Positions 10,811 through 32,000 of a DNA stretch of 32,000 nucleotides are shown in pieces. The position numbers were made by a program, and so were the translations under genes. The stretch is from an uncultured bacterium (GTDB taxonomy: Bacteria; Patescibacteriota; Gracilibacteria; UBA1369; PNNO01): positions 1,080,001-1,112,000 of the forward strand of contig OY969931.1 in assembly GCA_963704705.1 (NCBI GenBank), read 5' to 3'. Within the stretch, counting starts at the first letter, position 1; each line of letters starts with the position of its first letter. The notes under the pieces are model-generated. The model was not told the DNA's origin. It searched no databases and saw only the letters and a list, made by a program, of their open reading frames with translations.

Positions 10811-11272
10811 TTGAACATACCTCCGGAATTACTAGTATTTTTCTCAGCTATGCTCCCTATAACAGAACTAAGGGGATCAATTCCTTTAGGCTTTATTCTT
10901 GGCCTGCCTGCTGAAGCAACTTTTATATATGCATTAATCGGTAATATAATTCCATGTTTTTTAATACTTTGGGTACTTGAACCTATTTCAAAATTTTTAT
11001 CGCTTCATATCGCGTTTTTTGAAAAATTCTTTGATAAATTATATAAAAGAACCCATGACAAACATAAGGATGCCATTGAAAAATACGGCCCAATATTCCT
11101 TATTGTATTTGTTGCGATCCCCTTGCCTGGCAGCGGAGCCTGGACCGGCAGTTTAATTGCCTTTTTATTTGGAATAAAATATTGGAAAGCTGTAAGTTAC
11201 ATAAGCCTTGGGTTAATTATTGCTGCTTCGCTAATTACACTTGGAATAACGGGGGCGATAAGCTTGTTTTAG
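10811..11272 (+). CDS. Small membrane protein, 'putative small multidrug export' family (PF06695-like)
   Basis: 153-aa polytopic membrane protein with the family-typical N-terminal ITELRGSIPLG motif. The start is uncertain: TTG at 10811, or ATG at 10850 (MLPITELRG). Confidence 0.65.
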   Translation: MNIPPELLVFFSAMLPITELRGSIPLGFILGLPAEATFIYALIGNIIPCFLILWVLEPISKFLSLHIAFFEKFFDKLYKRTHDKHKDAIEKYGPIFLIVFVAIPLPGSGAWTGSLIAFLFGIKYWKAVSYISLGLIIAASLITLGITGAISLF

Positions 11273-12086
11273 CCATTTTATATTTCCGAAACTTTCTATC
11301 TATAATAGATTCAGATTGATGAGCTAGCTCATGATGGGGCCTACACAAAGGCTCAAGTTCGTCATGTTTGCGAAAAATCGACCAGGGTTTGGAATGATGG
11401 ATTTCTTCTGCCGGCCTATTACAGCCTGGCACAGAACATTTACCATTAGTTACGGTTAATGCATCACGGCGTTCCTTAGCCGAAGCTTGCCGGGATTCTG
11501 AATTTGATAATTTTGGATTTTTTTGTGGTTTTGGTAACGGAAGGTCAACCAATTTAGTAAAAACATCATTCCAGGTAGCACCATTACCCATTTTTTGCTT
11601 GATGATTTTAAGCTTAAGAATGATGTCCGGATCTAATTTTGCAGTAAAATCCTGAAATTCCTTGTCATAAATTGGATTTTCTGGTTCAATCAGCTTTCTA
11701 TGCCCGGGCATGGAATTTTTTATATCACTAATATGTGTTTCTAATGCTGTTTTTGACATTTTTTGAACTTTGGCTACCCACTGCTTTTCAGTTTTTTTAT
11801 TTGCAATATCCGCAACTCTTCTTAATTTGCTTAATCCTACTTCTGGCATAAGGGCTCTTAGTTTTGGCAATTCTTTTAATTTTTCATCAACCCTGATAGC
11901 TTCTTCAACTACAGCCCCGCTGATTCCTCCAACTTTTGCAGCGCATTCATAGATTGAAGCAAATCCTTTTTTCTTATAGATATTGTTTTTATAAATTCTC
12001 GGAATCATTGCCACAAATTCCTTCCTCTTAATTAAAATAATTTTGCCAATATTTCTAAATTTTTCATAATATTGATTATCATTCAT
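11235..12086 (-). CDS. HNH endonuclease-domain protein with DUF222-like helical N-terminal region
   Basis: C-terminal HNH/zinc-ribbon signature CSVPGCNRPAEEIHHSKPWSIFRKHDELEPLCRPHHELAH. Its 3' end overlaps the convergent gene by 38 nt. Confidence 0.8.
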   Translation of the reverse strand: MNDNQYYEKFRNIGKIILIKRKEFVAMIPRIYKNNIYKKKGFASIYECAAKVGGISGAVVEEAIRVDEKLKELPKLRALMPEVGLSKLRRVADIANKKTEKQWVAKVQKMSKTALETHISDIKNSMPGHRKLIEPENPIYDKEFQDFTAKLDPDIILKLKIIKQKMGNGATWNDVFTKLVDLPLPKPQKNPKLSNSESRQASAKERRDALTVTNGKCSVPGCNRPAEEIHHSKPWSIFRKHDELEPLCRPHHELAHQSESIIDRKFRKYKMAKTSLSPPLFQV

Positions 12087-12250: not shown

Positions 12251-13171
12251 ATGAAAAAACTCTTCGTAGCAGCACTTATAATTGGTGCTTTTTTTGCTGC
12301 GCAAACCGCATTAGCAAGTGACGTATGCTCAAACGAGCCTCAGGAAACTGCTGATTTTTATGTAGAAAATACTCAGCCAAACTGGCTTTTAAGTATGTCT
12401 TGTGTAGATTCTGAAATATTAACAACAATGCCAACAGGCTCTGTTATGCATGTAATAGGAAAAACCGAAGGCTGGCATAAACTTGTTACTGAAGATGGTC
12501 TTATTGGATGGATGTGGGAAGATTATGTAACGCCAACAACGAAGGCTTTTAATCCAAAGAGCGAAGAACCTGAACCAGCTCCAGAACCAGCTGAATATGT
12601 TGCAATGCGCGATATCGCAGGACACAAATACGAAGACGCAATTTGGTTTGTTTATAACAACGGAATCGTTCAGGGATATGAAGATGGCTCATATAAGCCA
12701 GAACAAAAAATCAACCGAGCTGAATTCTTAAAAATTCTAGTTGAATCAACTAACTTTCAGGATGATATTGAAAGTTACGAAGGTAAAAATTGTTTCAGTG
12801 ATATAAAAGCAGATGCTTGGTATTCTAAATATGTTTGTTTTGCTAAAGATAAAATGATTGTTGAAGGATATACAGACGGCTCTTATAAACCTGCTAATGA
12901 AATTAATTTTGTTGAAGCTCTTAAAATAATTTTTATGGTTTACACTTTTGAATATGAATCAGGAGAAGAGCCATGGTATAAACCTTTTGTGGATGTTGCT
13001 TCTGAAAAGAATTTTATACCTTTAGATATTGATCATTTTGATGATAAGCTTACAAGAGGCCAAATGGCTGAAATGATAACAAGAATCATGAAATATCAGG
13101 CAAACGAACTTGATAATTATTTAGGTGCAATGGCTGATGCAAAAATCACCTATGAGATGTTGGAATCTTAG
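12251..13171 (+). CDS. Secreted SH3b + S-layer-homology (SLH) repeat protein
   Basis: Signal peptide MKKLFVAALIIGAFFAAQTALA. SH3b-like segment GSVMHVIGKTEGWHKLVTEDGLIGWMWEDYV. SLH-type repeats (IVQGYEDGSYKPEQKINRAEFLKILV; IVEGYTDGSYKPANEINFVEALKII; LTRGQMAEMITRI). Confidence 0.75.
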   Translation: MKKLFVAALIIGAFFAAQTALASDVCSNEPQETADFYVENTQPNWLLSMSCVDSEILTTMPTGSVMHVIGKTEGWHKLVTEDGLIGWMWEDYVTPTTKAFNPKSEEPEPAPEPAEYVAMRDIAGHKYEDAIWFVYNNGIVQGYEDGSYKPEQKINRAEFLKILVESTNFQDDIESYEGKNCFSDIKADAWYSKYVCFAKDKMIVEGYTDGSYKPANEINFVEALKIIFMVYTFEYESGEEPWYKPFVDVASEKNFIPLDIDHFDDKLTRGQMAEMITRIMKYQANELDNYLGAMADAKITYEMLES

Positions 13172-14264
13172 AAAGCGCCCCCTGCCCTGCCAACCTTCCT
13201 GTTGCCCAGGCAATTTGAAGGTTAAACCCCCCTGTTAAACCATCTACATTCAAAACTTCGCCTGCAAAATAAATACGCGGGTCAAGTTTTGATTGCATGG
13301 TTTTAGGATCAACTTCATTTGTATCAACGCCGCCGGCAGTTACAATTTCACGGCCTGGGGTTCTGCCTTTTATTGTAAATTGATGTTTTTTTAAGTGAAG
13401 GATCTTTTGCTGTATCTGCTGTTTACTTAATTCACTAATATTCATATTCGGAGCAAAAAGTTCAGCCAGTGATTTAGGAATATATTTTTGAAAAATTTTA
13501 ACAAGCTTTTCCTTGGGATTATTCTGAATTTCAGTTCGAATTTGATCTTCATTGATATCAGGGATGAAATCTATACTCAGTATTTTGTTTTCAATATCTT
13601 CGAAAGCGGTAAATGCAGAAATCGCAAATATAGCGGGACCAGTTAAACCTTTATGAGTAAACAAAATAGGACCGGTAAAATTATAATCCAAAAAAGTAAG
13701 CTTTGCTTTTTGAATTGAAACCCCGCTCAAATCAGGAACATCTGCAATAAATGAAGTTAATGTTGGAGCGAGCCTGGTTATTTTATGACCAACTGATTCC
13801 GCAAGATTATAACCACTTTTACCTCCTGTTGTTATTATTATTTTATCTGCATCTAAATCATTCAAATCATTAACTTCTGTATTAAAATGAATCTTTGCAG
13901 ACTCAAATATTTTAATAAACATATCAATAATCTGCTCCCCATCTTCAGATTCAGGAAAAACCCTCTTACCTTCTGCCTTAAGCTTAATCCCGTGATCTTC
14001 AAACCACTTATAAGTTTGCTCGGGCCCAAATTCATACATCGCATATTTAAGCCATTTTGAGCCTCTAGGATAATTCTGAGTCAAATCACGTATATTTGTG
14101 ATTGTTGTAGTTATGTTGCACCTTCCTCCTCCGGTCTTCACAAATTTTTGACCCAATTTTGAATTTTTTTCATAAATTGTAATTTCAACCGAAGGATTGG
14201 TTTCTGCGATTGTTGCCGCAGCCATCATTCCTGCCGGCCCTCCACCAATAATTGATATTTTCAT
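13146..14264 (-). CDS. NAD(P)/FAD-dependent oxidoreductase, HI0933/BaiN family flavoprotein
   Basis: N-terminal dinucleotide-binding motif ISIIGGGPAGMMAA, family motif TGGGRCNIT and C-terminal FAGEVLNVDGLTGGFNLQIAWATG. Confidence 0.8.
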   Translation of the reverse strand: MKISIIGGGPAGMMAAATIAETNPSVEITIYEKNSKLGQKFVKTGGGRCNITTTITNIRDLTQNYPRGSKWLKYAMYEFGPEQTYKWFEDHGIKLKAEGKRVFPESEDGEQIIDMFIKIFESAKIHFNTEVNDLNDLDADKIIITTGGKSGYNLAESVGHKITRLAPTLTSFIADVPDLSGVSIQKAKLTFLDYNFTGPILFTHKGLTGPAIFAISAFTAFEDIENKILSIDFIPDINEDQIRTEIQNNPKEKLVKIFQKYIPKSLAELFAPNMNISELSKQQIQQKILHLKKHQFTIKGRTPGREIVTAGGVDTNEVDPKTMQSKLDPRIYFAGEVLNVDGLTGGFNLQIAWATGRLAGQGALSKIPTSHR

Positions 14265-14300: not shown

Positions 14301-14328
14301 TTGACAAATTTAAATAAGTTTGTATAAT
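14301..14328 (+). promoter_or_regulatory. Perfect-consensus sigma-70 promoter driving GC-rich island 1
   Basis: TTGACA (14301-14306), a 16-nt spacer and TATAAT (14323-14328). Predicted transcription start is near 14335, just before GC content jumps. Confidence 0.6.
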
Positions 14329-14334
14329 AAAAGC

Positions 14335-14700
14335 ATCTTTCGTCAGCGGCGCTCATAGTCTTGAGCTGCCCCTGGCGCGTTTACGATCGATGATCCTTAC
14401 AACGCGGCAACCAGCCGCACAACAACCAATCAGAAAGGACGGCGCACAAAAATGGGTCCGTGACACTCAAAAACTTTATGTTGGAGAACCCCTGGCATCA
14501 ACCCCAAACCAAGGAAGGGCCATCACCATGAGCTACTTCAGCTCCAAGTGTCGCAAACGCTAGTGCGGACGCCGATCTACGCCCGGATCGAATCGCGGCC
14601 CGCGGACAAGACGACAAGTCCGACGTCGCGGTAGATCGCAGGGCAGCAGGATGATCGATGGCCGTCCCCCCGAATTTGCTCGGGGGGACGGCCAAACTTT
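14335..14700 (+). ncRNA. Candidate structured non-coding RNA of unknown class (GC-rich island 1)
   Basis: About 58% GC (209/360 hand-counted for 14341-14700) against an AT-rich background. No plus-strand ORF of 60 aa or more. Bounded by a consensus promoter and a 14-bp hairpin terminator. Several complementary segments can be paired by eye, for example 14365-71/14641-47, 14573-80/14631-38, 14603-07/14618-22 and 14376-81/14401-06. I saw no RNase P, tmRNA or SRP hallmark motifs. Confidence 0.55.
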
Positions 14701-14709
14701 TTAAATTTT
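14660..14709 (+). terminator. Strong G/C hairpin terminator closing island 1; abuts the stop codon of convergent tsaC
   Basis: 14-bp perfect stem 14660-14673 / 14680-14693 (ggccgtccccccga / tcggggggacggcc) with loop atttgc, followed by AAACTTTTTAAATTTT. The T-tract is offset by 4 nt, so this is not a textbook terminator. Confidence 0.6.
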
Positions 14710-15309
14710 AAAATCCCCCCTTAAAACCACTCCTTCCACGCAGTCATAAACTGCACTTGGTTCATTAACGCCTATAAATCCCCCGTCAATAACCAAATCG
14801 GGTTCTACAGTAATATCTTCGCTTTTTAATTGTGTAAAAAAATCTTCAATTGCATAGTTTTCAGATCTGCCTGAAACATTTGCTGAAGTTGTTGTAAACG
14901 GATGCCCCAACTTTTTCGCGATATTAACAAGGCTTTCATAAGCCGGATTTCGAAGACCTACTTTTTCAATACATTTATTGAAAAAAGGAGGTAAAGTATG
15001 AAGTCGATTCACAATAAAGGTGTAAGGTCCCGGCCAAAATCTTCCCATTAATTCTTCTGCACGGCTATTAACTTCTCCCCAGTGCCGCGCATCTTCCAAA
15101 TCACTAACAACAATACTAACAGGTTTAAATTGATTCATTTGTTTAAACCTATAAAGTTTTGTGAGTGCGTCTTCATTAAAAATATCAACTGCCAAGCCAT
15201 AGCAGGTTTCTGTCGGATGAACAACCAATCCTCCCTGATTTAAAGTGCGGACAAATTCCTCTTCAACTGTACTTCCCCATTTATCTCCCTTAACTGTCAA
15301 CCTTTTCAT
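14701..15309 (-). CDS. tsaC: L-threonylcarbamoyladenylate synthase (YrdC/TsaC type, t6A biosynthesis)
   Basis: 202 aa, consisting of a YrdC domain only. Motifs VHPTETCYGLA, KPVSIVV, GPYTFIV and TTTSANVSG. Confidence 0.85.
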   Translation of the reverse strand: MKRLTVKGDKWGSTVEEEFVRTLNQGGLVVHPTETCYGLAVDIFNEDALTKLYRFKQMNQFKPVSIVVSDLEDARHWGEVNSRAEELMGRFWPGPYTFIVNRLHTLPPFFNKCIEKVGLRNPAYESLVNIAKKLGHPFTTTSANVSGRSENYAIEDFFTQLKSEDITVEPDLVIDGGFIGVNEPSAVYDCVEGVVLRGDFKI

Positions 15310-16385: not shown

Positions 16386-16386
16386 T

Positions 16387-16414
16387 TTGACATCATAAAA
16401 ATTTCGTTTATAAT
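16387..16414 (+). promoter_or_regulatory. Perfect-consensus sigma-70 promoter driving GC-rich island 2
   Basis: TTGACA (16387-16392), a 16-nt spacer and TATAAT (16409-16414). It begins 2 nt after the gap stop codon and has the same hexamers and spacing as the island 1 promoter. Confidence 0.6.
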
Positions 16415-16415
16415 T

Positions 16416-16495
16416 CCAGCAGATTCAATCAAAACATTGAAGCTATCTTTTGATATGCTGGATTGACCTTTGAAAGGTGAAAAGGAGGTATTCGG
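16416..16495 (+). promoter_or_regulatory. Structured 5' leader with hairpin and canonical Shine-Dalgarno sequence
   Basis: Hairpin built from ccagca/tgctgg (16416-21 / 16456-61) plus atcaaaa/ttttgat (16428-34 / 16448-54). AAGGAGG lies at 16482-16488, 7 nt before the ATG at 16496. CCTTT (16467-71) could pair with the AAAGG of the SD (16481-85). Confidence 0.45.
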
Positions 16496-16897
16496 ATGGA
16501 TGCATCGCTGTTAAACAACTTCTCAATGCCCTTAAATTGGTACGCTGAGATCAAGGAGGCTCTCGGCGCCACATTCGAACCCGCAGCTCACTTCCTGGGC
16601 CGCATGATGCCCTTTGGGCCAATCAAGGCCTCGGCAATGCAAGCCATGGGCGTGATCGCCTGGCTCAACTTTCGGGGTCTCACCGTAGAAAACCTCTACG
16701 ATGAACCCAAGTACTTCCAGGAGCTACGCGTCACCATGTGGGTATACGCAATCGGGAACTTCTCGAACGATCCCGAGTCGAGCCAAAAGCTCATCAACCT
16801 GGCCGCGGCCAGCGAGCACATCCTCAAGGGAGTCAAGGACAAGGTCCCGTGGGAAGCCATCGAGCAAAGTCTGAAGGACTTGGCTGTTGCCGCATGA
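16496..16897 (+). CDS. Orphan 133-aa protein of foreign (high-GC) composition, no recognisable family (GC-rich island 2)
   Basis: About 56% GC (234/420 hand-counted for 16501-16920) with strong G/C preference at third codon positions in this frame only (ctc ggc gcc ttc ccc cac ctg ggc ...). Strong SD, own promoter and own terminator. No TM segment, signal peptide, Cys or motif I can recognise. Confidence 0.75.
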   Translation: MDASLLNNFSMPLNWYAEIKEALGATFEPAAHFLGRMMPFGPIKASAMQAMGVIAWLNFRGLTVENLYDEPKYFQELRVTMWVYAIGNFSNDPESSQKLINLAAASEHILKGVKDKVPWEAIEQSLKDLAVAA

Positions 16898-16922
16898 TGC
16901 CCGTCATCACCTTTTGTTCCGG

Positions 16923-16954
16923 CCCGTCTGCAAGTGCAGGCGGGTCGCTTTTTT
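16923..16954 (+). terminator. Canonical intrinsic terminator closing island 2; abuts the stop of the convergent ATPase gene
   Basis: 9-bp stem cccgtctgc / gcaggcggg (16923-31 / 16936-44, one G-U pair) with tetraloop aagt, followed by tcgcTTTTTT (to 16954). Confidence 0.75.
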
Positions 16955-19745
16955 AAATATTTTTTGCAATTTTTTGAGCTGCAAGAATCATTCTTTTTCT
17001 GCCTTTTTTTATTTCAGTTATTCCCAAATAAATAAACCCGGCCATAAATGCAAATATCCAATCAATTAAAGTAAGCGGGCCTGTGTGAAGGAAATGTGAA
17101 ATATATGGATTATATGTGATATTCAACAGGAATATAAATGAAATTAAATACCCTATTAAAAGTCGTTTGTTTGACCATAAATAAGCGGTTGCGATGCTCT
17201 TATTTTCTGCTGTTCTGCGGGCTAAAATATTAAACCACTGAATAAGTACAATCGATAAATAAGTAATTGTTGTGGCTCTTAAATAAACAAGATCATTAGT
17301 CTGAACAGTTACAGGTGAAACACCTTCTCTAAAAAACACTAGTAAGAAATTGCCAAATGCTAAAGTCCCCATTATCAAACCGCTCCATGCAATATCTAAA
17401 AGATTTTTTTTGTTTAATATATGTTCATTTGGATTTCTTGGAGGCGACTTCATAAGCTCTTTATCAGGCGGATCCCAGGTTAAAAATGTTAATGGAAGCA
17501 TCTCGCCCACAAGATCGATAGCAAGAATCTGAACAGCAAGGATAGCCAGCGGATATCCGAGAAGGCCCGTTAATACAAGGCTCAGTAAAACCGCAAAAAG
17601 CTCGCCGCCATTTGAAGTAAGCGATGACATTATTGTTTTTGTAAGATTCCTAAAAATAGTTCTTCCTTCTTCAACTGCTATTACGAGTGTAGCAAAACTG
17701 TCATCAAGCAAAATTATTTCAGCTGAATTTTTTGCAACATCAGTACCGGTTCTGCCCATAGCAACACCTATGTCAGCTTTTTTCAAAGCCGGCGCATCAT
17801 TTACACCATCGCCCGTAACAGCAACTATTTCACCTGCTCGTTTTAAAAGCCCGACAATTCTAAGCTTATCTTCTGGTGAAGTGCGCGCGAAAATTAAATT
17901 GCTGTGAATCAAATTATGAATAAGTTCAATATCTGAAAATTTATGTAGCTCTTTACTTGTTATTACTGTTATTGCTTTATCTTTGGTCCCCTTACCCATG
18001 CCTATTTTCCTTGCTATTGCTTCAGCTGTAAGAGCGTAATCACCGGTAATTATAATAATCCTTATAAATGATTTAAGAGCCATATCAACAGCCTCCTGAA
18101 CTTCTTCACGCGGCGGATCAATCATTGAAATCAGACCAAGCCAGATAAGATTATTTTCTACTTCTTCAATTCCAATGTTTTCTTTGTAATCAAGTAACTC
18201 TTTATATGCGTAGCCAAGATTACGCATTGCAAGCATAGCGTTTTCATCATCCTTATGTTTAATAAGTTCTTTATCTTCATTTGTGATTGGTCGAATATTT
18301 TGGCCATCCCAAATATGTGTACATTTTTCAATAAGAGCCTGCGGAGAACCTTTAACGTAAGCGATATGTTTGCCATCTTTATTTCTTATTGAAGACATTA
18401 ATTTTCTACCGGCATCAAAAGTGAATTCAATTATTTCAGGATATTTTTCTTCAAGCTTTTGCTGATTCACTCCTGCTTTTGCAGCAAGAGTTATTAACGC
18501 TGCTTCAGTTGGGTCGCCTATCGCATACCAGTCCGGATGTTCTTTGTCAGGTTCGCTTATATGTGCATTTGAAGCAAAAACACCTGTTTCAAAAAACAAT
18601 CTAAAATTACTAATTTCCTCTTCTGACAAAGGAGTATTGTTCTCTTTCATTAACTGGCCTTCGGTTTTATATCCAATTCCCGTTACATTGATTTCCTTTC
18701 CACCAATAAACAGCTTTTGCACAGTCATTTCGTTTTTGGTGAGAGTGCCTGTTTTATCGGTACAGATAATATGAGTTGAACCTAAAGTTTCAACTGCTGA
18801 AAGCTTTTTAATTATTGCCTTTTCTTTTGCGAGTCTGCCTGCTGCCAGCGACAGAGCTATAGAAACCTGCGCTGGTAATCCTTCAGGAACACATGACGCG
18901 GCAACTCCCAAAGCAAACAAAAAGGCTTCACGTAGGGTAAAATGCAATACGAGCCCTACAACAAAAAGTATAATACCGATAGCAATCGTTACAAATGTAA
19001 GATTTTTTGCCAGATTGTTTAATTCTTTTTGAAGCGGAGAAAGATCATCTTCGGTTTGCTGACTTAAATTCGCAATTCTGCCAATTTCAGTATTCATACC
19101 TGTAGCAACAACAACTCCTTTTGCATTACCTGTTGCAACAGTGGTTCCCATAAAAGATATATTGTTTCTGTCTCCGAGCCCTACCTGAATTGAAATAGGA
19201 TGTGTAAATTTTTTAACTGGATTTGATTCACCGGTTAATGAAAAGTCATTTGTATAATAATTATGCTCCTCTATAAGACGTACATCTGCAGGAATTGCAT
19301 CCCCTTCTTCCAGTAAAAGAATATCTCCGGGAACAACATCTTCACCATTAATTTCCATCTCGTGGCCATCGCGCACTACTTTTGCTTTGCTTGAAACCAT
19401 TGTTTTAAGCGCGTCCATTGTTTTTTCAGCTTTATATTCCTGAGCAAATCCAATAACAGCATTAATAAACACTATGGAAAACATAATTACAGTATCCCTA
19501 TATTCATTTAAATATAATGAAATAAAACCGGCCACAATCAAAATTATCACCATTAAGTCTTTAAACTGATGGAGAATTTTAAAAAGCAAAGGTTCCTTAT
19601 GTTTAATTGTAAGTTTATTTTGCCCGTAAATATTAATGCGTTCCTTAAATTCAGAGTCGCTCAAACCTTTTACGTTTGTTTCAAGATTTTTCACAACTTC
19701 ATCAATCGTATACTGATAGTAATTTATTCTGTTTTTAACTGGCAT
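16953..19745 (-). CDS. P-type cation-transporting ATPase (P2-type, Ca2+/Mg2+-ATPase-like)
   Basis: 930 aa. Phosphorylation motif ICTDKTGTLT, TGES actuator motif (LTGESNP), hinge motif TGDGVNDAPALKKADIG and PEGLP in TM4, which is typical of P2 ATPases. Ion specificity is inferred only. Confidence 0.85.
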   Translation of the reverse strand: MPVKNRINYYQYTIDEVVKNLETNVKGLSDSEFKERINIYGQNKLTIKHKEPLLFKILHQFKDLMVIILIVAGFISLYLNEYRDTVIMFSIVFINAVIGFAQEYKAEKTMDALKTMVSSKAKVVRDGHEMEINGEDVVPGDILLLEEGDAIPADVRLIEEHNYYTNDFSLTGESNPVKKFTHPISIQVGLGDRNNISFMGTTVATGNAKGVVVATGMNTEIGRIANLSQQTEDDLSPLQKELNNLAKNLTFVTIAIGIILFVVGLVLHFTLREAFLFALGVAASCVPEGLPAQVSIALSLAAGRLAKEKAIIKKLSAVETLGSTHIICTDKTGTLTKNEMTVQKLFIGGKEINVTGIGYKTEGQLMKENNTPLSEEEISNFRLFFETGVFASNAHISEPDKEHPDWYAIGDPTEAALITLAAKAGVNQQKLEEKYPEIIEFTFDAGRKLMSSIRNKDGKHIAYVKGSPQALIEKCTHIWDGQNIRPITNEDKELIKHKDDENAMLAMRNLGYAYKELLDYKENIGIEEVENNLIWLGLISMIDPPREEVQEAVDMALKSFIRIIIITGDYALTAEAIARKIGMGKGTKDKAITVITSKELHKFSDIELIHNLIHSNLIFARTSPEDKLRIVGLLKRAGEIVAVTGDGVNDAPALKKADIGVAMGRTGTDVAKNSAEIILLDDSFATLVIAVEEGRTIFRNLTKTIMSSLTSNGGELFAVLLSLVLTGLLGYPLAILAVQILAIDLVGEMLPLTFLTWDPPDKELMKSPPRNPNEHILNKKNLLDIAWSGLIMGTLAFGNFLLVFFREGVSPVTVQTNDLVYLRATTITYLSIVLIQWFNILARRTAENKSIATAYLWSNKRLLIGYLISFIFLLNITYNPYISHFLHTGPLTLIDWIFAFMAGFIYLGITEIKKGRKRMILAAQKIAKNI

Positions 19746-28139: not shown

Positions 28140-31100
28140 ATGCCTAAAAAGTCAACTTCAAAGAAAAAGGCTGATAAAAAGCCTGCTAAAAAACAAGTGA
28201 AGGCTATTGTCAAGCCAAAATCTACTAAAGCAAAGGCTAAACCTAAAAAGGTTATGCCTGTTAAAGCTGGTCCCAGAGCGACCAAAGGGAGCTCTACTTC
28301 GCGAAGCGGAGCTAAAAAAGTAAAAAAGAATGTTGGTGTTAAAGCCGGTCCAAAAAAATTAAAAACAAGTAAACCTGAAGCAAAAGTTCAAGCTGCGCCA
28401 AAAAAAGCTTTGCCTAAAGCAAAAGCTAAAGCAGCAAAACCAAAGAAAAGGCTTAAAATTAGAGAAGCTGTTTTCTCGATGCAACCATACATTGAGGCAA
28501 TTTCTAAGCCTATTACAAAAACTGCTGAAAGAAAATATTTCAGACCGCAGTTGGATGTTAAACAAGAACTTCCACCATTAATTGAAATTCAGATAATGTC
28601 TTATAAATGGTTTTTGGAAGAAGGATTAAGAGAGCTTTTGGATGAAATTTCTCCGATTGCAGACTTTTCAGGCAAAAAACTTGAACTTCACTTTTTGGAA
28701 CATTCAATTGGCGAACCTAAATATGATCCTGAAACAGCGAAGAACAAAAATTTAAGTTATGAAGCTCCGTTAAAAGTACATGTACAACTTATTAATAAAG
28801 AGACAGGTGAAATTAAAGAACAGGATGTATTCCTTGGAAGTATTCCTTTGATGACAGATAGAGGAACTTTTATTATTAATGGAATCGAAAGAGTTGTTGT
28901 AAGTCAGATAGTTAGATCTCCTGGTGTGTTCTTCTCAAATAATTCTGCTGCTCCAGGCATGTGCAGCGCAAAAATCATTCCAAAAAGAGGAGCATGGCTT
29001 GAAATTGAAACTGATAAAAAAGGTATTATTACAGTTAAAATTGATCGAAAACGTAAAATTCCTATTACTCAATTGTTAAGAGTTTTCGGATATGAAAAAG
29101 ACAAAGAAATTTTAGATTTATTTAAAGATGTAATTACAGATATTGAACATGATTACATTTTAAAAACTCTGGAAAAAGATAGTGCTAAATCAATTGATGA
29201 AGCATATCAAAGTATTTACAGGAAAATCAGACCTGGTGATCTTGCAACACCTGAAAACGCAAAAGCCCTTATTACTTCTATGTTCTTTGACTATAGAAAA
29301 TATGACATGGGGCCTGTTGCAAGATACAAATTAAATAAGAGATTCAAACTTTCTACTCCGAATGAAAAAAAATATCATACTTTTCAGGTTGAAGATTTAG
29401 TTCATATACTTAAATATTTAGTACGACTTAATAATGGTGAATTAAAACCTGATGATATCGATCATTTATCAAACAGACGTATCAGAGCGGTTGGTGAACT
29501 TGTTCAGAATAAATTCAGAGTTGGTTTATTAAGAACAGACAGAATCGCAAAAGACAGGATGACTGTTATGGATTTGGATACTGTCACTCCGACTCAGTTG
29601 ATTAACTCTAGGCCTATAACGGCTGCATTACGTGAATTCTTCGCGAGCTCACAGCTTTCGCAGTTTATGGATCAAACTAATCCACTTGCAGAACTTGCTC
29701 ATAAAAGAAGACTTTCTGCTATGGGGCCCGGTGGACTTTCACGTGAACGTGCTTCATTTGATGTACGTGACGTGCATACCTCGCATTACGGAAGAATTTG
29801 TCCTATTGCAACACCTGAAGGACCAAACATTGGTTTGGTTGTTCATTTGGCAACATTCGGACGTGTTAATAAATATGGATTTATCGAAACGCCATTTAGA
29901 GAAGTTGCACATACTGTTCCAAACAAAGCTAAAGACATGATTGGAAGGCATGCATCTCAGGACATTATTAATCCAGGCACTAAAAAAGCCATTGTTAAAG
30001 CTAACGAACTTATTGATGAAAAAGCAGCTAAAGCAATTGAAAAACTTAAAATTGATGAAGTTCCGGTAATAGCATATGTTACGACCAATACAAAGTATAT
30101 GGATGCTGATGAAGAAAAACCATTAACAATTTCTCAGGCAAATACACCAATCGATGATAAAACAGGAGAATTCCAGGAATTAAGAGTTGCTGCCCGTGAA
30201 AATTCAGAACCTGTATTGGCTGATGCCGAAGACGTAACTCATATGGATGTATCTCCAAAACAGATCATCTCTGTTACTACTTCACTTATTCCATTCCTTG
30301 AGCATGATGATAATACACGTGCTTCAATGGGTTCAAACATGCAACGTCAGGCTGTATCTCTTGTGTCACCTGAAGCTCCGATTGTCGGAACAGGTATGGA
30401 AGAACTTGCAGCTAAATCTTCAGGTCAGGTATTGATTGCTGAAGATGACGGTACTGTTTCATATGTTGATGCTAATGAAATTACAGTTATTTATAAAAAC
30501 GGTAAAAAAGTTACTTATACTCTTCATGTTTACAGCAGATCAAACCAGGCTACTTCTATTCATCAGAGAGCAGTTGTAGATCAAGGCGATAAAGTTAAAA
30601 AAGGTGACGTACTTGCTGATGGTGCATCAACTGACGGCGGAGAACTTGCACTTGGAAGAAACCTTCTGGTGGCTTACATGGCTTGGCAGGGTTACAACTA
30701 TGAAGATGCGGTAATTATTTCTGACAGACTTGTTAGAGATAGTGTTTATGATTCAGTTCATATCGAAACATTCACAATGGATGTTCGTGATACAAAACTA
30801 GGACCTGAAATTGTAACAAGAGATATCCCTAACGTTGGAGAAAACAGATTAAAAGATCTGGATGAAGACGGTGTTGTGAGAATCGGTGCGCATGTAAAAG
30901 AAGGAGATATCCTGGTTGGTAAAATCACACCAAAAGGTGAAACTGAATTAACCGCCGAAGAAAGATTATTACGTGCTATCTTCGGTGATAAAGCGCGTGA
31001 TGTAAAAGATACTTCATTAAGACTTCCCGGTGGTGAAGGCGGAAAAGTAGTTGGTGTTCAATTATTCACAAGACAAAATGGAGATGAACTTCCAACAGGA

Positions 31101-32000
31101 GTAAACAAACAAATCAGAGTAAGTGTTGCGCAGACTCGTAAAATCTCAGTTGGAGATAAAATAGCGGGACGCCATGGTAATAAAGGTGTAATTTCAATTA
31201 TTGTACCTCAGGAAGATATGCCGTTCTTACCGGATGGAACACCTGTTGATATTGTTTTGAATCCGCTTGGTGTATCAAGTCGTATGAATATCGGACAAAT
31301 TTTAGAAACGCATTTGGGATGGGCAGCAATAAAACTTGGCATGAAAGTTGCGAGTCCGGCGTTAAACGGAGCAAAACCTAAAGACATTACTGATCTTCTT
31401 AAAAAAGCGGGCTTACCTGAAGATGGAAAAATCCAGCTTTATGATGGAAAATCAGGTGAACCGTTTGATCACAAAACAACAGTAGGTATTGCTTACATAA
31501 TGAAATTGAGCCATTTGATTGAAGATAAAATCCATGCAAGATCTGTTGGACCATATTCACTTGTTACTCAGCAGCCTCTTGGAGGTAAAGCTCAGCATGG
31601 TGGACAGAGATTCGGAGAAATGGAGGTGTGGGCACTTGAAGCATATGGTGCATCTCATACTCTTCAGGAAATGCTCACAATCAAATCCGATGATGTATAC
31701 GGAAGAGCAAAGGCTTATGAATCAATCGTTAAAGGTGAAGCTATCAGAAAACCAAGAACACCTGAATCATTCAATGTACTTGTAAAAGAATTACAAAGTT
31801 TATGTTTGAGTGTTGATCTTGTTAATACTGATACATCTGACGATGACCTGGCCGAGGACGAATACTCAATCAAAGAAGTTGAAAAAGAAGAAGAAGAAAT
31901 TTTAAAAGAAGATATCGAAGACAGAGAAGAAGTTGATCCTGAAGTAGCAAAGAAAATGGCTGAACAAATTGTGACTCCTCATGAAGGTGGGAATCGCATT
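28140..32000 (+). CDS. rpoB: DNA-directed RNA polymerase beta subunit, 3'-truncated by the window edge, with a 113-aa Lys/Ala/Pro-rich N-terminal extension
   Basis: Absent from the ORF track, probably because there is no stop inside the window. My manual translation of the frame beginning at 28140 found no stop in any stretch I read (several segments across the gene), and an in-frame TGA lies upstream at 28023. Hallmark segments: [109 protein letters not shown] and [20 protein letters not shown]. Confidence 0.97.

Follow-up and report, generated by a model that had tools for sequence, protein, structure and literature searches.

Introduction

Several kinds of described bacterial element come close to the locus reported here. 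GC-rich non-coding RNA (ncRNA) genes have been found in AT-rich genomes by screens that set GC content against intergenic length, the GC excess in those genes reflecting dense covarying structure. Dual-function small RNAs, such as RNAIII (delta-haemolysin), SgrS (SgrT) and SR1 (SR1P), also carry a small protein-coding frame, and the morons known from lambdoid phage genomics are autonomous cassettes of promoter, gene and terminator, deviant in base composition and lodged between two genes. Here we analyse a window of 32,000 nucleotides (the whole stretch of DNA under study, positions 1,080,001 to 1,112,000 of contig OY969931.1, forward strand) from an uncultured member of the Patescibacteria, and in particular a compact promoter-to-terminator gene on its plus strand (14301-14702) with a predicted RNA of ~330-365 nt, referred to below as the RNA unit. 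The RNA unit is a gene, by its signals independently transcribed, that belongs to no described RNA family and occurs in a Peribacteria-like group only; it is both novel and real, and demonstrably structured at its ends only. Its promoter has been kept perfect, its 5′-proximal hairpin (H1) and its terminator have undergone compensatory changes, no long reading frame is conserved in it and its composition has been maintained. From these sequence comparisons we think it on balance probable that the unit specifies a new, lineage-restricted and highly expressed stand-alone RNA, which would be stabilised by its end hairpins and U-poor body and would act through exposed islands that resemble ribosome-binding sites followed by micro-frames.

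Like the RNAs recovered by GC screens, the RNA unit is a GC-rich intergenic block free of open reading frames (ORFs), with promoter and terminator signals, in an AT-rich genome, and the logic of its detection is the same; in contrast to them, only its end hairpins covary and its body folds about as well as shuffled sequence. With RNAIII, SgrS and SR1 it shares a stand-alone gene of a few hundred nucleotides in which a small frame preceded by a Shine-Dalgarno (SD) sequence is set among non-coding parts. The frame, however, has 10-12 codons (4 in the allele of locus L004) and an unconserved C-terminal half; neither sequence nor Rfam relates the unit to these RNAs, and no base-pairing target for the RNA unit was found in the window. 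The unit is moron-like in having its own sigma-70 promoter, its own intrinsic terminator, a deviant GC content and a position between genes that abut in relatives. It differs from a moron in that it is chromosomal and lies among housekeeping genes, has no match in phage or viral collections, carries a payload without a long ORF and has a composition that is maintained, not decaying.

The transcription unit

Four alleles of the RNA unit were compared, those of the window and of loci L026, L005 and L004, three of them close relatives and all four within one narrow Patescibacteria (Peribacteria-like) group. Transcription is predicted to start at ~14335-14336 from a sigma-70-type promoter (14301-14328, plus strand) composed of the −35 hexamer TTGACA (14301-14306), a 16-nt spacer and the −10 hexamer TATAAT (14323-14328). 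A preliminary description of this DNA, made by reading the sequence, had called this promoter perfect, and it does match the consensus at 12/12 positions. Perfect copies of TTGACA-N16-TATAAT number only two in the 32 kb, each directly upstream of one GC-rich block. Both hexamers are perfect in 4/4 alleles, while the 16-nt spacer varies at several positions in L026 and L004; the promoter therefore appears to be under selection for strength.

At the other end, the conserved 3′ block GCAGCAGGAUGAUCGAUGGCCG and an intrinsic terminator together occupy 14643-14702 (plus strand), the stem-loop lying at 14659-14694 and the U-run at 14698-14702. A terminator scan gave an uninterrupted stem of 15 pairs with a 6-nt loop and few A-U pairs. 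The uninterrupted hairpin first described is thus real, but its stem is not purely G/C (12 of the 15 pairs are G-C) and the U-run begins 3 nt past it. GC content over 14341-14700 is 0.5806 (209/360), exactly the count originally made by hand (~58%), against 0.355 for the whole window. Only two blocks reach at least 50% GC over at least 150 nt in the 32 kb (14341-14760 and 16501-16950), and the GC/AT junctions at the RNA unit are sharp. The body of the unit (14378-14658, plus strand) is GC-rich and U-poor (A 0.29, C 0.30, G 0.26, U 0.15). As reported at the outset, the unit sits between two minus-strand genes, which encode an HI0933-like flavoprotein (13146-14264) and a Sua5/YrdC (TsaC)-like protein (14701-15309); in the window, L026 and L004 the RNA terminator comes within ~6 nt of the stop codon of the convergent Sua5-like gene.

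The RNA unit is genuine DNA of one organism and no assembly artefact. The window forms part of a 1.37-Mb contig, and over the RNA unit and both GC/AT junctions a Logan assembly made independently from run ERR11571143 does not differ from it. Diverged alleles keep this gene context elsewhere: those of L026/L027 (~88% identical overall) lie on a 64-kb JGI contig and on a Logan contig of 57 kb assembled from a different run, the L005 allele (L005-7, L034-39) was found in contigs from six further sequencing runs and is identical in 6/6 compared contigs, and the L004 allele is located in the single-cell genome SAG AM-311-A13. An assembly chimera or contaminant insertion, a worry raised in the preliminary description and one that the sharp junctions might encourage, has a negligible probability given identical independent assemblies across both junctions and diverged alleles in the same context from other runs and a single cell.

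Distribution among relatives

In a synteny walk from Sua5 homologues the RNA was found only in L004, L005-7 and L026/27, to which further contigs identical to L005 can be added. Relatives with a Sua5-like protein 70-81% identical have no such RNA in the slot beside the Sua5-like gene. The syntenic site lacks the RNA in L003, L008, L010, L011/12, L022 and L024/25; the Sua5-like and SLH-domain genes abut directly in L003, L010 and L011/12, and the slot is occupied by other sequence in L008 and L022-25. In the window clade the HI0933-like gene and the RNA are both inserted in this Sua5-like/SLH slot. In the L005 lineage an orphan 183-aa gene separates the RNA from the Sua5-like gene; this gene (L005:1486-2037, minus strand, also in L034-L039) has its own TTGACA promoter, occurs in one lineage only and had no homologue among 5.8 billion proteins.

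The closest Sua5 relatives of L004 (84% identical) are also without the RNA. In L004 itself the RNA lies between the stop codon of the SLH gene and a terminator homologous to the post-SLH terminator of L008, the hairpin GCCACUCUGGAGACGGAGUGGC of the L004 RNA (L004:5655-5690) corresponding to L008:4040-4075 in a locus that has no RNA. Promoter and RNA body appear here to have been inserted upstream of a pre-existing terminator. Overall, the RNA unit seems to behave as an accessory cassette in a variable slot, chromosomal and with a moron-like architecture.

Secondary structure

The 5′-proximal bulged hairpin H1 (14341-14377, plus strand; CGUCAG-C-GGC-GCUCA-[UAGUCU]-UGAGC-U-GCC-C-CUGGCG, loop in brackets) begins ~6 nt after the predicted start of the transcript. 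The window and L005 share the inner stem GCUCA/UGAGC, in place of which L026 has GCCUU/AAGGC and L004 has GCUGU/GCAGC. Over 14 pairs and four alleles, 98% of cells are paired and four pairs are changed on both sides; the covariation score was reached by 1/500 shuffles, and controls in slid registers were 34-60% paired. A covariance model of H1 built from three alleles (without L004) picked out the L004 copy (E=0.014) as its sole match across 115 kb of related DNA. In the terminator stem, four pairs are changed on both sides among the three close alleles. H1 and the terminator thus carry compensatory base changes, and structure has evolutionary support at the ends only.

The body presents a different picture. 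The whole unit folds at z = −5.97, whereas the body alone gives z values against dinucleotide shuffles of −2.66 (window), −0.91 and −1.67 across three alleles; the stability of the whole is therefore mostly that of the two end hairpins. The Sua5-like protein of L005 is 97% identical to that of the window, yet its RNA unit is only ~71% identical, with several indels, and alignment with L004 is limited to the promoter, H1 and a handful of short motifs. The five helices paired by eye in the preliminary description do consist of complementary segments, but among them only the small CGGAC/GUCCG hairpin has compensatory pairs (two). The GCUGCCC/GGGCAGC helix, supposed to enclose most of the unit, is invariant and so uninformative, and its 5′ strand doubles as the 3′ side of H1; CGATCTAC/GTAGATCG, CGCGTT/AACGCG and GAGCT/AGCTC are broken in L005. 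What survives of the novel structured RNA proposed there is a conserved RNA of no known family with covarying ends, while a global fold of ~365 nt is unsupported. A body-closing helix between 14386-14397 (plus strand, AUCGAU.GAUCCU) and 14648-14659 is possible: it is present in the minimum free energy folds of the window, L026 and L005 (in shifted register), with 89% of cells paired and no covariation across the alleles. We also considered the excess of GATC noted earlier (6 copies against ~0.9-1.4 expected). The count is correct, but the bodies of the other alleles have 4, 2 and 0 copies, and the enrichment was rejected as a functional signal, being unconserved and explained by palindromic helix arms.

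Conserved islands and coding potential

Amid this divergence a few stretches of the body are invariant. In an island at 14431-14466 (plus strand; CAGAAAGGAC...AUG GGU CCG UGA CAC) an SD-like AAAGGA precedes a mini-frame of three codons (14452-14463); the window, L026 and L005 share CCGUGACAC and the AUG unchanged amid divergent surroundings, the frame reading AUG-GNN-CCG-UGA-CAC, and L004 has CAGAAAGGAC followed by AUGGCUUAA. A further island at 14511-14563 (plus strand) comprises the SD-like AAGGAAGG (14511-14518), a 9-nt spacer and a small ORF (sORF, 14528-14563) encoding MSYFSSKCRKR*. It contains the longest invariant stretch of the body, the 17-nt CCAUGAGCUACUUCAGC (14526-14542), identical in the window, L026 and L005, and the 3′ block GCAGCAGGAUGAUCGAUGGCCG beside the terminator is the third stretch invariant in these alleles. 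The peptides of the 10-12-codon sORF are MSYFSSKCRKR (window), MSYFSSSLWLTM and MSYFSSMMCM. Three alleles have SD, AUG and the opening six codons in common, with one serine codon switched from TCC to AGC between alleles, and the C-terminal tail is variable. The spacing from SD to AUG is kept at 9-10 nt though the sequence of the spacer differs. Counterparts in L004 are GGAGG-N5-AUG GAC UAC GGU UAA, a frame of 4 codons, and AAAGGA-N3-AUG GCU UAA. We infer from these patterns that what the islands have in common is probably ribosome loading on very short frames rather than a conserved peptide.

Hidden coding potential, a concern of the preliminary description, was sought by six-frame translation of three alleles, and no longer frame is shared on either strand, stop-codon reassignment included. 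The earlier statement that there is no plus-strand ORF of at least 60 aa is accurate, with the qualification that a 57-aa ORF (14390-14563), under that cut-off, is present in the window allele only and runs into the MSYFSS frame; L026 has ATA in place of its ATG, and in L026 and L005 alike the frame shifts. The minus-strand ORF listed at 14498-14695 is real (65 aa) but contains stop codons in the L005 allele. The SD-preceded mini-frames, including the 10-12-codon sORF, had been overlooked, as had the second GC-rich cassette discussed below.

Comparison with known RNA families

Rfam 15 at gathering thresholds gave no hit in the window and none in L003 or L004, and a search of three alleles at E ≤ 10 with relaxed filters returned only spurious matches to terminator hairpins. 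ARAGORN found no tRNA or tmRNA in the window. The view that this is no obvious housekeeping RNA is borne out by these searches. Comparison by blastn with phage and plasmid collections gave no match to the RNA unit, and an exact 26-mer had none in viral and genome contigs. The pattern of promoter plus 5′ hairpin had 9 matches in metagenome contigs, all of them unrelated promoters of GC-rich organisms. In viral contigs the invariant 17-mer had two chance matches inside coding genes and the 3′ block none; the hairpin pattern had 63 chance matches there, and of 6 examined none had a promoter-like site upstream, the best lying inside an ORF. Full-text literature searches for such RNAs in Peribacteria, Peregrinibacteria or Patescibacteria yielded nothing.

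Comparison with individual classes points the same way. tmRNA (SsrA) is similar in length, GC richness, strong promoter, stand-alone position and short internal frame, but the RNA unit is without a tRNA-like domain, its 5′ end folds locally (H1) and not with the 3′ end, its frames open with SD and AUG, and neither ARAGORN nor Rfam gave a match; a GAUCGAAU at ~14593 that resembles a T-loop is not retained in L005. RNase P RNA is marked by the conserved P4 strands GGAAAGUCC / ACAGAA..GGCUUA. The unit matches neither RF00010 nor RF00011, and its CAGAAAGGAC lies in the 5′ third without a conserved pairing partner. 6S RNA has a closing stem that joins its ends, a central bubble and a length of ~185 nt; the RNA unit differs from this and from signal recognition particle (SRP) RNA in its length of ~330-365 nt, its local 5′ hairpin and the absence of an Rfam match at E ≤ 10. 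With the CsrB/RsmZ sponges it shares a stand-alone gene and several GGA-containing purine motifs, one of them CAGGAUG. In four alleles, however, there are 5-8 GGA against 4.7-5.2 expected and 2-4 AGGA against 1.2-1.6 expected, and the GGA motifs are not repeated in hairpin loops.

Other classes were not supported either. For a riboswitch, T-box or attenuator leader, the next gene is convergent, on the minus strand 6 nt past the terminator, and there is no Rfam cis-regulatory match. For a retron ncRNA, Pfam scans found no reverse transcriptase among the 27 main ORFs of the window. For a type I toxin-antitoxin RNA, the only conserved ORFs on either strand are the 3-12-codon frames. For a type III system, no same-strand gene follows downstream and no repeats were apparent by eye, no tandem-repeat search having been made.

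Maintained composition and a second GC-rich cassette

All four RNA bodies have ~56-58% GC and 15-17% U. When substitutions were polarised by majority rule among three alleles, an equilibrium GC of 0.52 was implied for the RNA unit and one of 0.27 for the third positions of codons in the ATPase gene next to it, the rates being different (Fisher p ~1e-4 to 7e-4). The GC-rich, U-poor composition of the body appears to be actively maintained.

The second GC-rich block of the window (16387-16955) is a cassette with the anatomy of the RNA unit. Its promoter (16387-16414) is a perfect TTGACA-N16-TATAAT, an AT-rich leader with a 5′ hairpin follows (16416-16461), and a strong SD (AAAGGAGG) precedes an ORF of 133 aa (16496-16897), with a terminator at 16920-16954. 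The two cassettes are not similar in sequence. The 133-aa protein falls into three sequence clusters, none outside this clade; no further relative emerged when 1.84 billion representative proteins were searched with a profile. It has no Pfam match and no viral relative, and its AlphaFold model (pLDDT 46) was too poor for a fold search. Its C-terminus, ...KDLAVAA, resembles an ssrA-type degron. With dN/dS of 0.20-0.35 the gene is under purifying selection, and its dS (~0.48) equals that of its neighbours, so that its inheritance has been vertical. Its GC3 is 0.74 against 0.26-0.27 in the neighbouring genes, its T3 0.10 against 0.40, and its implied equilibrium GC3 0.67. The coding RNA folds no better than shuffles (z = −0.67), so RNA structure does not explain its GC richness. 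Both cassettes would therefore seem to keep, rather than lose, their GC richness. L004 has the RNA, with no homologue of the 133-aa protein on record there.

The 133-aa gene occupies a slot downstream of the GAPDH gene (window 16386-16955; L008:1382-1825; L003:3045-3545; L011:215-729; L004:3592-3966) that holds different small genes among relatives (133, 147/166, 153 and 124 aa). The 147-aa (L008) and 166-aa (L003) products are ~51% identical and the other products mutually unrelated; the gene of L011/L012 also has a perfect consensus promoter. This slot looks like a hot spot for accessory cassettes.

Other genes of the window

Pfam scans of the 27 main ORFs assigned neighbouring genes to glycolysis, chaperone function, tRNA modification and the cell wall. 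Within the HI0933-like gene, the segment 13250-14000 and its L026 counterpart are 95-99% identical where the background is ~88%, which suggests recent recombination or transfer beside the RNA unit. The minus-strand gene at 11235-12086 encodes a 283-aa protein without a Pfam match whose C-terminal Cys/His pattern (CSVPGCN...HHSKPW...CRPHHELAH) is like an HNH nuclease motif, and a gene of similar size (273-283 aa), likewise without a Pfam match, is found at the equivalent position in L008, L010, L011 and L026. ORFs seem to be missing from the list for ~28140-32000 because this region is taken up by one very long plus-strand ORF of at least 1280 aa, with a Lys/Ala-rich N-terminus, that begins near 28140 and continues past the window end.

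Discussion

In the interpretation that we favour, the RNA would be made in large amounts, its ends stabilised by the two hairpins and its length protected by the scarcity of A/U-rich single-stranded nuclease sites. It would act in trans through a few invariant and probably exposed islands. As these resemble ribosome-binding sites and are followed by frames of 3-12 codons, loading of the 30S subunit or the ribosome would be the most likely mode of action. Variants of this scheme are that the RNA is a dual-function small RNA which also yields a micro-peptide starting MSYFSS, or that translation protects or remodels the RNA; alternatively, the invariant 17-nt block might base-pair with a target. 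Several results weigh against such a scheme. The body is barely more stable than shuffled sequence, and in the L005 allele large parts of it have been free to change. The covariation statistics are thin, with only four alleles of which three are close kin. The patchy presence of the RNA among relatives implies that it is dispensable. A mini-frame of only 4 codons in L004 makes a functional peptide doubtful. As regards an antisense target, the window contains no complementarity of at least 12 nt, and duplex energies to 29 translation-initiation regions were those of shuffled RNA.

The conserved frame at 14528-14563 could also be read as the purpose of the transcript, which would then be an mRNA for a micro-protein of 10-12 aa in the close alleles, the remainder being untranslated stabilising sequence. 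We regard this as unlikely, though it deserves attention: the SD-like purine tract stays 9-10 nt before the AUG despite spacer change, MSYFSS is kept through a TCC to AGC serine switch, and the codons all end in C like those of the neighbouring GC-rich 133-aa gene. However, the C-terminal half is wholly different between alleles (KCRKR, SLWLTM, MMCM), the likely L004 counterpart is merely MDYG, a transcript of ~330 nt for 11 codons is an unusual ratio, and invariance of the 17-nt block at all synonymous sites fits constraint on the RNA equally well. That the unit is instead a relic of foreign GC-rich DNA, for example a decayed horizontally acquired gene, which has no function and is expressed from a strong promoter that it happens to follow, would account for deviant GC, patchy presence, a variable intergenic slot and a body that diverges fast and folds weakly. 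It would leave unexplained why both hexamers stay perfect while the spacer drifts, why H1 and the terminator show compensatory changes and why there is no decay toward the AT-rich equilibrium (0.52 against 0.27); phage, plasmid, viral, genome and metagenome searches yielded no donor sequence either, and we consider such an origin improbable.

A highly diverged tmRNA, RNase P RNA, SRP RNA or 6S RNA missed by Rfam and ARAGORN is very improbable. A length of ~330-365 nt, GC enrichment, a very strong promoter and a stand-alone position are typical of such RNAs, and the RNAs of Patescibacteria are often atypical, but three alleles gave no match at E ≤ 10 and ARAGORN none, the local 5′ hairpin speaks against the architecture of tmRNA, RNase P RNA or 6S RNA, most relatives lack the unit at the syntenic site, and divergence is far faster than in housekeeping RNAs. 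There is equally little to recommend a cis-acting role as a convergent antisense or terminator module for the 3′ end of the Sua5/TsaC-like gene. The RNA does converge on that gene in the window, L026 and L004, its terminator ~6 nt from the stop codon; against this, the 183-aa gene intervenes in the L005 lineage, most relatives manage without the unit and the RNA does not overlap the Sua5 coding sequence.

A broader proposal, which we hold to be a long shot, is that the RNA unit and the 133-aa orphan gene together exemplify, in Patescibacteria, a class of compositionally insulated expression cassettes not described before. Both consist of a payload rich in GC and poor in U, preceded by a universal consensus promoter and a stabilising hairpin at the 5′ end and closed by a strong terminator. 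GC richness itself would then be selected, perhaps because the transcripts have to withstand a ribonuclease directed at A/U (of the cell itself, a phage or a host) or because their place of action is the GC-rich host cell of an episymbiont, and the RNA might be a decoy or effector in cell-cell or phage conflict.

If the RNA unit proved to be a decaying relic or the mRNA of a tiny peptide, it would be ordinary. Otherwise, since to our knowledge almost nothing is known of regulatory RNAs in Patescibacteria (Candidate Phyla Radiation), a conserved and very strongly promoted RNA gene without an Rfam family offers a concrete target for metatranscriptomics and co-culture work. Two short cassettes keep an equilibrium GC of ~52-67% in a 35% GC genome whose neighbouring genes tend to 27%, and this implies selection on transcript composition or a local biased process. 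No aspect of the locus is more intriguing or less explained than this maintained GC, which the RNA unit shares with an orphan-gene cassette; the finding may matter more than the RNA itself and would bear on genome composition, orphan genes and symbiont-host conflict.

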